Virus record (IMG/VR): IMGVR_UViG_2695420523_000015
DNA: 13,112 nt
DNA from: a virus
Lineage: Duplodnaviria; Heunggongvirae; Uroviricota; Caudoviricetes
Direction: 5' to 3' (one strand)
The position numbers are program-made. Positions 6,001-9,000 of this stretch are shown here, piece by piece (position 1 is the stretch's first letter; each line of letters begins with the position of its first letter).

Positions 6001-9000
6001 CAGGCCGACGCGGTGGCGAGACATGAAAAAGGCGACCTTATCAGCGTGGCGGGTAACATGCAGATCAGCCAGTGGACCGGACAGAACGGAGAAACACGGC
6101 AGGGCTGGCAGGTTATCGCTGACAGCGTAATCAGTGCCCGTTCGGCGCGTCCTGGCGGGAAGCGGGGGCAACAGGGGAAGGCGACCGAAGCACAGGAAAG
6201 AGCAAAACGACAGACCGGACAGCAGGGAAATCAGCCACCAGCGGGAGGTGATGACCCGTTCTCTGACGATATTCCGTTCTGAATGACAGAAGCACAACAT
6301 GAACCAGCAGACCACACAACAGGACCAGACCACACGTAAACCATCACGGCGCATACCGTGGCAGCACATGACAAAGCGGCAGCGAAAAAACCGCAGGAGG
6401 ATAAACCGACTGGCTGAGTACTGGCCTGAACTGTTTGGGGCAGAGAATATAAAACCCCTTAAGGCTGGCGTGATACACGATATGTTGCAGGACGCGAAGG
6501 CGCGGGAACTGGCGATTGGTCATGGCGTATTACGTGGCGCATTAACCTCACACCTTCACACGACGCGATACCTTAAGGCGATTATTGCTGGTGGCCCACG
6601 GTACGACCTGAACGGGCAACCTTGCGGCGAAGTCACGGAGAAAGAGAAAGCAGCAGCCAGCGAACAACTGATGTGGAGGCTGGAGCAGATAAAACAGCAA
6701 AACATCCAGCGGCAGGATACGGGAGGTGGTGAGAGTGATAACAGACAGCGTGGCACAGAAACTTGAGGAGCGCGGTTTATGGCGACGTGCGGCGACCCGA
6801 TGGGCTGAGGTTCTTCTTCACGCAGAAACGGACAGTGAACGCGAGGAAGCTGCCAGACGTCGGGCGATATGCATCAGTAAAACCCGTCGTATGCCTGAAC
6901 AACTGGTCACCTTTGGCGATGTGAAAAAGGCCGCAGACAGAACGCTGAAAGAGATGGGGATTAATCCGCAGGATGAATGGAAAAATTACAGCTTCAGTGA
7001 TGCAGGCGACGATTTAGCGCTATCGTGATACGCATATCATCGCCGTATTTGCTCAATTATCGCGATTCGCTATAATCACCACCGAAAGGTCGTTGATGGT
7101 GTTCGCCTCGGGCAACTGGAGCCCGACAGCATGAAGCCAGCCAGCGGCTTTTCGGTACTCATTTTGATGTGTACTTGTCACACACATCGGGATGAGTGAA
7201 CGACGAAAACATCACGGTGATTTCGTCATGCCGCGATAAGAATGCGCCTCTTTGGGCAATTGAAGCCCTCTGTACAGCGGGTTATCGCGGCAAAGTTGTG
7301 ATAAAAACGCGCCTCTTTGGGCAACTGGAGCCCACTGTAAAGCGGCTTATCACAGCTGGCGGTAACGGGCGCTCATCTCCGGGCAACTGAAGCCCTCTGT
7401 ACAGAGACCCGTTACGGCTGACCCTGAATGATTTCTGCCACGTGCAACTGGAGCACCCGGAGAAATCTTTCAGGGTTTTTTATTGCCCCTCCACCAGCAC
7501 CACATCTGTAGCATTGATGCGTATACATTCGCCGTCAATTGCACCGTTCCGGCCCTCACCGTCACGCACCACAACAGAATGACCAGGCAGGCCATAACGC
7601 GCCACCTTTCGACGAACACCATCACCAGCGCCCTCACGACGCTCATACACATTAATCCGCTCAAGAAGACCATCACGCACCATAGCTTCCAGCGTGCGCC
7701 TTGTTGATTCGATCTGATACCGGCTGTTGAATGAATCCATACCATGCAGCAGGTAAGCCACACCGGAGACATCAAACGGCGGACTGCCAATTTCGGCAGT
7801 AACCCACGCCAGATTGTCGGGAGTGAAGTAACTGAGGATCTCTTTTTTGTATTGCGTCAGTCTCATAGTGACCTTTCTTGTTGTAGGATGAATCCCTCAT
7901 ACAATAAGCCATAAGACAAATTTTGAAAGGACAGAATCGGCGGGGTACAGATGATACGTGATGACAAGGCTGAAGCGCTGGAGAATAGCGGCCTCTGGCG
8001 GCGTGCTGCTGAACGCTGGGGAGAATTGTTCAGACAGGCAAAAACTGATGAAGAGAGGCACTATATTACCCAACGAAGGGCGCAATGCACGGCAAAAGCC
8101 ACCAGACCAAAAACAACAGAGTGGGGGCATGTATGCGCCGTCAGGGCAGCAGCGACCAGAACGCTTAAAGATATGGGGATTGACCAGAAAAAAGAAGATC
8201 CTTTACGGGGCACGAAGTACAGGGGTGAAACAGGGCGAAGAGACGGAAGTTAATATGGACACAATAACTGATAAAAAAGCCGAACAACTGGAATCTCAGG
8301 GACTATGGCGAAGAGCCGCCGCTCGTTGGCTTGACGTAATGAAAGAGGCCCACACCGATCCGCAGCGAGAACATATAGCCAGACGGCGGGAAATATGCCT
8401 TGCGAACTTCAGGATGCTGTAAATAAGACTGTTGACGATATGGGAATCAGACGGGATCGGCGACATTACGGGTTATGGAAATAACAGCCAGGTAAATTGG
8501 TGAATATACGGCAGGCTGCAATCAGAGCCGAACATAGCGGCCTCCGTCACCATTATCAGACAGTAGCGGTAGTCCTTCCATCACAGCAAAATGCTACCCA
8601 CTTCACAGCCCCTTAGAAGCCTCTTCGATGGGGTGAAAAATCCCTGAAAAAATGCGCAAAAAAGTGCGCAAATCGATCATAAAACTGATCACAAAATCGA
8701 TCACACAGACAAACAGAGCAAAGCCAGATATGACGCGGCTTGCAGGGGGATAGACACCTCAAAAAGTGCGCAAAAAACTGCGCATTTTTCTCAAAAACGA
8801 AACGCAACAGGAAGCGCAAAACGAAACCGATACGTAATGATCGAAAAAGTGCGCAAAAATGAGCGTATAAAAAAGGGGAGGTTACAGGGGCAGGAGTGGT
8901 GTATTTGTTATCATTTCTACCTAACCTCAACACATTGGGGGAGCGATGACGGACGTTGAATTGTCAGTATCAATTCGCTGCATTATCTCACAGAAAGTAC

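Follow-up and report, generated by a model that had tools for sequence, protein, structure and literature searches.

Described relatives of the genes considered here include PerC, encoded on plasmid pMAR7 of enteropathogenic Escherichia coli (EPEC), and the Pch proteins of enterohaemorrhagic E. coli (EHEC). Among these, only PerC and PchA/B/C have been shown to activate ler, the gene for the LEE (locus of enterocyte effacement) master regulator, PchD and PchE having almost no effect (PMC5931665). The prophage-encoded pchABC genes are induced along with their prophages (PMC5931665); expression of pchE drops on SOS induction, and PchE represses curli, flagella and adhesion (PMC6265319; PMC5931665). 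PerC variants are encoded also by phage-inducible chromosomal islands (PICIs) of E. coli (PMC6092414; PMC11773190), where the PerC-like proteins of EcCIEDL933 and EcCICFT073 have no effect on LEE1 and EcCIMP1_025, from the PICI EcCIMP1 of E. coli MP1, silences LEE1-lux in Citrobacter rodentium (PMC11773190). Here, a 13,112-nucleotide stretch of caudoviricete DNA (IMG/VR record IMGVR_UViG_2695420523_000015; 'the window' refers to this whole stretch) was analysed, which carries three PerC-family genes, designated copies 1, 2 and 3. The best overall explanation, and one that we consider probable, is that the genes represent an old PerC trio carried on a phage satellite, the products of which act as regulators via protein partners.

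All three predicted products score above the gathering threshold of the Pfam PerC profile (PF06069; 22.6 bits), which bears out the initial annotation with respect to both the identity and the position of the genes. Copy 1 (6726..7028, +), which comprises 100 amino acids (aa) if read from a GTG at 6726, scored 98.6 bits (E = 2.6e-28), copy 2 (7951..8253, +; 100 aa) scored 81.9 bits (E = 4.2e-23) and the truncated copy 3 (8255..8422, +; 55 aa) scored 58.7 bits (E = 7.1e-16), in the last case with only positions 2-49 of the 90 in the profile being matched. A second GTG at 6735, located 8 nt after a GGAGG, is more likely than that at 6726 to be the start of copy 1; the resultant product is of 97 aa, the same length as an orthologue annotated by PGAP as a PerC family regulator. 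Indeed, in 116 complete E. coli genomes all three genes are already labelled 'PerC family transcriptional regulator' by PGAP. The motif GLWRRAA(T/E/A)RW, noted at the outset as common to the three copies, is present in each, as are the PerC-family N-terminal motif L-E-x-x-G-x-x-R-R-A-A-x-R-W and a Cys some 20 residues further on, and residues L10, E11, R17, A19, A20, W23 and C46 are invariant in an alignment of 83 sequences. A C-terminal helix with a conserved Ala and M-G-(I/L) is found in copies 1 and 2, and lies out of frame in copy 3.

Kinship with the PerC and Pch proteins stands on alignment also, since the three copies match authentic PerC of EPEC plasmid pMAR7 over their full length and show 32-48% protein identity with PerC, PchA, PchD and PchE of Sakai/pMAR7. 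In common with PerC and the PchA/B/C proteins of the EHEC O157:H7 lambdoid prophages, the copies belong to a single Pfam family, fall within a size range of ~90-104 aa, are carried on mobile DNA, and have the LExxG(L/F)(W/Y)RRAAxRW motif, the conserved Cys and the C-terminal MG(I/L) helix. However, identity with these proteins is only 32-46%, the PerC and PchABC genes are carried by a virulence plasmid or by lambdoid prophages with effector genes as opposed to a satellite replication module, and activation of LEE1 has been demonstrated for their products. An alternative frame (7958-8422, +) is open through copy 2 into copy 3, forming a 154-aa open reading frame (ORF), and gene callers often report this ORF, or versions of it of 97, 119, 124 or 153 aa, in place of copy 2. 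The calling of this frame as a gene results in spurious 'PerC' proteins in the databases, P0047 and P0160 for example, and the 97- and 124-aa 'PerC' genes of this type at loci L013-L016 were rejected as gene-caller artefacts.

Pairwise identity between the three copies is 45-54% at the protein level and ~65% per column at the DNA level. The copies are as distant from one another as they are from PchA, PchD and PchE, and each has its own orthologues in the databases. Because of these identities and separate orthologues, the genes are best regarded as old paralogues brought together on one element, and recent tandem duplication was ruled out as their origin. Hence, of the ongoing duplication and decay proposed initially, the decay is upheld, in the form of a frameshifting 40-nt deletion in copy 3, and the ongoing duplication is not. 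The array is not strictly tandem either, contrary to the earlier description, since only copies 2 and 3 are adjacent. These form a two-gene unit, copy 2 first, in which a single base separates the copy-2 stop codon from the copy-3 ATG, whereas copies 1 and 2 are 922 bp apart, with a hairpin array and an opposite-strand gene of 128 aa (ORF128; 7480..7866, -) between them. ORF128 encodes a conserved hypothetical protein with no match in Pfam, NCBIfam or PHROG, and is separated by an 84-bp intergenic region from copy 2, from which it diverges. Homologues of ORF128 (phmmer E about 1e-45) are located near PerC genes in EcCIMP1 as well as in loci of Kluyvera, Enterobacter, Shimwellia and Atlantibacter, and ORF128 has the appearance of a conserved partner gene.

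A copy-number scan with the PerC motif, conducted with one genome per species and covering 56 loci from ~25 Enterobacterales genera, revealed a single PerC gene within 6 kb either side at all 56 loci. In 11 genera the PerC gene comes after genes for the primase and the single-stranded DNA-binding protein (SSB), sometimes with ProQ, the primase-SSB-(ProQ)-PerC order being observed in E. albertii, E. ruysiae, Kluyvera, Enterobacter, Shimwellia, Atlantibacter, Pantoea, Leclercia, Lelliottia, Citrobacter and Scandinavium, and the ProQ-PerC pairing itself in elements of E. albertii, E. ruysiae, Pantoea, Leclercia and Lelliottia. Copy 1 occupies this position in the window, overlapping the end of the ProQ gene as the last gene of a primase-SSB-ProQ-PerC operon. 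Since the position recurs across 11 genera, and since the scanned loci are single-copy, copy 1 is interpreted as the core PerC gene of the element, and copies 2 and 3 as an extra pair specific to this E. coli lineage. The slot past ORF128 is variable, with locus L012 having an identical copy 1 and ORF128 without copies 2 or 3. The family is widespread in genera that lack LEE, including Erwinia, Pantoea, Lonsdalea and others, and control of LEE, the role with which the genes were associated initially, therefore cannot be its ancestral function. One database protein, P0019, is a chimera with a copy-1-like N-terminus and a copy-2-like C-terminus, and has an accession number consecutive with that of its neighbour P0161, an intact 87-aa protein of copy-3 type; P0019 suggests a recombination event between copies 1 and 2 in which the hairpins and ORF128 would have been deleted.

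The initial placement of the three genes on a mobile element is supported by the related loci and by the C4 RNAs and iterons described below, the carrier being, to judge from its gene content, a P4-like/PICI-type phage satellite integrated in the chromosome. The window begins after the integrase; an integrase and a helix-turn-helix (HTH) gene are present in near-identical loci (L001, L002, L004 and L012), which open with a tyrosine integrase at tRNA-Gly (glyU), beside the ETT2 secretion-system remnant, the integrase of the O157:H7 version lying between yicC and dinD. In the related loci the integrase is followed by an AlpA-like HTH gene and then by Rha/AntA genes, such that the order of the element is integrase, AlpA-like HTH, Rha/AntA, two C4 RNAs, primase and iterons, SSB, ProQ/FinO, PerC genes and Q antiterminator. 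The window and these loci thus have in common with satellites an integrase, an AlpA-type regulator and a primase in one orientation, iterons beside the primase, and no full set of phage structural genes. The C4 antisense RNA genes (2028-2115 and 2509-2596, both +; Rfam RF01695, 70.3 and 72.9 bits), which lie downstream of the Rha/AntA genes and upstream of Icd-like small ORFs, look like a duplicated RNA immunity module of P1/P4 style. The gene for a P4-alpha-like primase/helicase with D5_N, DUF5906 and Pox_D5 domains (3518..5341, +) is followed by an AT-rich gap (5342..5600; 34-37% GC), which contains at least 10 copies, in both orientations, of TGTTCACC, a sequence that we take to be the P4 type I iteron. 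This gap is the likely replication origin, and the island is predicted to replicate in the manner of satellite phage P4. The SSB gene (5833..6282, +; PF00436, 60.2 bits), which belongs to the same operon as copy 1, and the ProQ/FinO-family gene (6299..6766, +; PF04352, 86.1 bits), directly upstream of copy 1, come next. A search of L001 and the window for attachment-site direct repeats, based on the tRNA-Gly 3' region, yielded none of at least 13 nt.

Two satellite-encoded PerC proteins provide the nearest comparisons for this arrangement. The gene for PchE of Sp7/CP-933C (the PICI EcCIEDL933) in O157:H7 Sakai has the same genomic position, directly after the SSB gene of an island with a P4 integrase and primase, but is present as a single copy, on an element with capsid and terminase genes, and its product represses curli and flagella while leaving ler almost unaffected. 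EcCIMP1_025 is likewise satellite-encoded, with an ORF128 homologue nearby, and shares 61% identity with the intact copy-3 lineage. Unlike the copies in the window, it is single, full length (93 aa) and a repressor of LEE1, and its element has a TOPRIM/DUF927 primase and a different integration site.

Next, the predicted fold was considered. An AlphaFold2 model built from the 83 sequences has helices at residues 5-13, 16-28 and 33-50, with a predicted local distance difference test score (pLDDT) of about 90, followed by a linker and a fourth helix at residues 60-73. No relatives were found in the PDB either by sequence or by fold (best E = 1.6). The model for the ANR family (AraC negative regulators, for example Aar), NF033650, aligns to residues ~6-53 of each copy, across profile positions ~7-54 of 54, with bit scores of 13.6 for PchA, 18.2 for PerC, 19.6 for copy 1, 23.0 for copy 3, 23.1 for copy 2 and 31.1 for EcCIMP1_025, against a family cut-off of 32; some PerC-family proteins exceed the cut-off. 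The likeness to ANR proteins comprises the N-terminal ~50 aa, which align with the profile, and the size of truncated copy 3, which is that of an ANR protein, whereas the scores below cut-off and the additional C-terminal helix of copies 1 and 2 set the copies apart. The N-terminal three-helix domain appears remotely related to the ANR anti-activators. Proteins of that family bind AraC-type/XylS activators and H-NS, as is reported for Aar (PMC5570504, PMC4983702). Because the N-terminal domain is ANR-like, because ANR proteins bind partners of the AraC type and H-NS, and because the copies have no recognisable DNA-binding fold, a mechanism involving protein partners would be favoured over direct binding to DNA. 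No gene for an AraC/XylS-type partner was seen among the scanned ORFs of the window. The copies would accordingly be envisaged as small, all-helical proteins that bind H-NS, AraC-type partners or other PerC/Pch proteins, and that could tune transcription of the satellite, the helper phage or horizontally acquired host genes. In LEE-positive EHEC hosts they may modulate LEE, in either direction, and the 55-aa copy 3 would act as an N-terminal-domain short form.

The distribution of the genes in E. coli was then examined. A 2.2-kb region was found in 116 of 5426 complete genomes, on the chromosome in every case. O157:H7, O103:H2, O111:H8 and other Shiga-toxin strains share the 1005-nt block of ORF128, copy 2 and copy 3 with 100% identity, at two integration sites; identity is lower, 92-96%, for copy 1 and for the hairpins. 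The ler gene was found in 697 genomes and the block in 116, and a joint query returned 732, which indicates that 81 have both. Hence, 70% of the block genomes (81/116) carry ler, versus 11.6% of the remaining genomes, a strong association, albeit one uncorrected for clonality. In all 60 of the best joint-query matches there was a second matching place; 31 of these 60 appeared also among the matches to the block alone, with one block place each, with the exception of OkiPb01711, so that the second place corresponds to ler, which for the remainder of the 60 is inferred from the 100%-identical single match. A host with a PerC-responsive target, on which the initial annotation had made its proposal depend, is consistent with 81 of the 116 close-relative genomes being ler-positive. 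In Sakai, yicC and dinD are adjacent, the island being absent, and pchA, pchD and pchE are located elsewhere. The three copies are therefore not pchA-E, an identity that was considered and rejected; similarly, the proposal that P0044 (104 aa) represents PchA was dropped following comparison with the real Sakai pchA. The copies are distinct from the named pch genes; the class to which they belong has been noted in satellites already, and the genes themselves are already annotated.

What the copies do with respect to virulence is where the possible explanations diverge. The initial annotation had the PerC/Pch proteins as activators of the LEE master regulator, which is true of PerC and PchA/B/C and not of PchD or PchE, and an extension of this idea is that the copies are LEE activators like PerC and PchABC, with induction of the element raising ler and thereby coupling the satellite to virulence. 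Membership of the same Pfam family, the full-length alignment with PerC, the enrichment of the block in ler-positive genomes (70% versus about 12%) and the induction of pchABC together with their prophages (PMC5931665) are consistent with this. Yet the identity of the copies to the proven activators, 32-46%, is no higher than that to PchD and PchE, which barely affect ler, the PerC-like proteins of EcCIEDL933 and EcCICFT073 are neutral on LEE1 and EcCIMP1_025 represses it, and expression of pchE falls under SOS induction. A test of closeness to the activating group also failed: identities of 32-46% to PerC/PchA compare with 43-48% to PchE, which is the nearest named Pch of copies 1 and 2 (48% and 45%, respectively), and with 61% between the copy-3 lineage and EcCIMP1_025. 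Since the nearest tested relatives are a near-neutral protein, PchE, and a LEE1 repressor, EcCIMP1_025, activation appears to be the least supported direction, and a role of the copies as activators that link induction to ler is improbable. Some modulation of LEE, of either sign, is nevertheless plausible because the block occurs mostly in LEE-positive hosts. The opposite proposition, that one or more copies, copy 3 above all, are ANR-like anti-virulence repressors that damp LEE or antagonise PchABC or GrlA, draws on the identity between EcCIMP1_025, which silences LEE1, and both the intact copy-3 lineage (61% over 75 aa) and the truncated form (60% over 50 aa), on ANR scores for the copies (19.6-23.1) that fall between those of the activators (13.6-18.2) and that of EcCIMP1_025 (31.1), and on the repression of curli and adhesion by PchE. 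However, the direction of regulation in the PerC family does not follow from 61% identity, the ANR scores are sub-threshold, and the scanned window ORFs include no AraC-type partner; this proposition is unlikely, if less so than the activating one. Somewhat doubtful too is the view that the copies serve the life cycle of the satellite alone, at satellite or helper promoters, without meaningful effect on virulence. The presence of a single PerC gene in the replication module across ~25 Enterobacterales genera, including the plant-associated Erwinia, Pantoea and Lonsdalea, which lack LEE, and of relatives on 223 plasmids and in phage protein families, fits this view well, but it leaves unexplained both the three copies here, where the 56 other loci have one each, and the enrichment in ler-positive genomes, and PerC and PchE demonstrably alter host gene expression. 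The explanation that we prefer, an old PerC trio on a satellite acting via protein partners, has several points to set against it. The predicted template modelling score (pTM) of the AlphaFold model is only 0.51, the ANR scores lie under the NCBI cut-off, and the lack of a known DNA-binding fold is compatible with DNA binding. In addition, the best coverage of the window by any complete genome is 77%, the association with LEE is confounded by clonality (many of the genomes being O157:H7, O111:H8 and O103:H2) and by a shared pool of phages and satellites, and the truncated copy-3 allele has almost no sequence diversity, too little for selection to be assessed.

The status of copy 3 requires separate consideration. 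Alignment at the DNA level with an intact allele (L007:1976-2280) revealed a single gap of exactly 40 nt, with a 3-nt TTG microhomology at the junction (8400..8402, +), so that the loss reported initially is real, though smaller than the 43 nt or so given. The reading frame stops after 55 aa, and the C-terminus is indeed out of frame, as had been described: the frame read from 8257 ends in CELQDAVNKTVDDMGIRRDRRHYGLWK with a stop at 8484, a C-terminus that the intact allele P0022 (contig L007) has in frame, the remnant itself (8423..8484, +) ending in VNKTVDDMGIRRDRRHYGLWK and the same stop. A second, more diverged intact orthologue of copy 3 is present in L003, from a pig isolate, with the same three-gene layout. 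The possibility that copy 3 is a pseudogene, with an inconsequential product that hitch-hikes on a successful element, has a little less than an even chance. Helix 4 and the conserved A..MG(I/L) motif are lost through the frameshifting deletion, the remnant is almost identical to the intact allele, from which it follows that the deletion is recent, and intact alleles are still common, with 546 contigs containing P0159 and 187 containing P0161. Conversely, the copy-3 ATG is retained one base past the copy-2 stop, an arrangement that permits translational coupling, the entire high-confidence N-terminal three-helix domain is kept, and O157:H7, O103:H2 and O111:H8 share this allele with 100% identity, across two integration sites. 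The exact copy-3 protein was found in at least 1000 contigs and the exact copy-2 protein in at least 999, with the copy-1 allele of the window in 35. Natural short forms exist besides, with stand-alone proteins of 60-75 aa occupying this slot in elements of Lelliottia, Citrobacter and Scandinavium (L064, L072 and L074) and with short phage protein families. The earlier suggestion that the 55-aa product might still act thus gains support from the retention, in the model, of the whole N-terminal domain and from the N-domain-only proteins in the same slot. A working short form would be more likely than a dead gene, and the chance that the 55-aa product is still functional is put at slightly better than even.

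What is established about virulence regulation in EHEC comes for the most part from Sakai and EDL933. Sakai does not have the element, and the five named pch genes do not include the copies. The block being identical in many O157:H7, O111:H8 and O103:H2 genomes, several important EHEC lineages carry three further putative regulators of PerC type. Since members of the family variously activate, ignore or repress LEE, the copies could account for some of the variation in LEE expression between strains. With the short copy, moreover, it could be tested in a natural setting whether the N-terminal domain is active by itself, and whether PerC and ANR proteins share a mechanism. Should none of this hold, the locus would be an ordinary accessory part of a common satellite.

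The region between copies 1 and 2 contains five long hairpins in a row (7090..7485, +), which share the apex GGGC-AAYTGRA-GCCC, the last being followed by a T-run, TTTTTTATT. The lower stems vary in sequence yet stay complementary, the 462-nt region has a folding energy of -194.7 kcal/mol versus -144.1 (sd 6.1) for shuffled sequences (z = -8.3), and the core motif occurs four times versus 0.07 expected. The array has no match in Rfam, the apex sequence returned only unrelated matches in the literature, and the motif is absent from the loci of other genera, in which the few matches lie within primase coding sequence. A function as replication origin was considered and ruled out, given that P4-type TGTTCACC iterons occupy the AT-rich gap that follows the primase. 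The hairpins, being close to the ProQ/FinO gene, could feasibly be an RNA target of its product, an RNA chaperone by family. A 62-nt unit of the array (window 7230-7291; L019 9001-9062) is found also in 182 phage records (88-92% identity; one occurrence in each genome), nearly all of them short-tailed Stx1/Stx2-converting phages such as VT2-Sakai, where it lies inside a giant LPD38/LPD5-domain gene on the opposite strand, and also in ~300 further E. coli genomes. The satellite may have copied the unit from a helper phage, in which it would serve as a site, and its sharing with Stx phages is the only hint with regard to induction or packaging by a helper phage. A highly speculative proposal, to which we assign a very low probability, is that the trio forms a LEE rheostat delivered by an Stx-phage-dependent satellite, in which the copies would enter mixed complexes with each other, PchABC or H-NS, the 55-aa copy would be an ANR-like dominant-negative, and the hairpins, as copies of a site present once in Stx phages, would link the trio's expression or transfer to Stx-phage induction. 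If this were true, toxin-phage activity and attaching-effacing virulence would be cross-regulated via a third party.

A scan of the window for promoters and terminators revealed sites no more numerous than in shuffled sequence. Towards the left of the window, a 507-aa ORF (838-2361, +) is AntA-like at its start and extends from there over the two C4 RNA genes; most of it is probably not a real gene, since the related loci are annotated in this region with an AntA fragment and Icd-like pseudogenes. To the right of copy 3, and preceding the Q antiterminator, is a gene for a YeeE/YedE-type membrane transporter (9056-10294, +), which falls far under the NCBIfam cut-offs for TsuA and YedE and which the O157:H7 version (L002) of the element has but the glyU versions (L001 and L004) lack. 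Close to the right end of the element, the lambdoid Q-family antiterminator gene (10601-10999, +; PF06530, 174.6 bits) stands by itself, and is followed by a glycoside hydrolase family 15 gene (11955-13034, +) that borders the ETT2 type III secretion remnant in related genomes.

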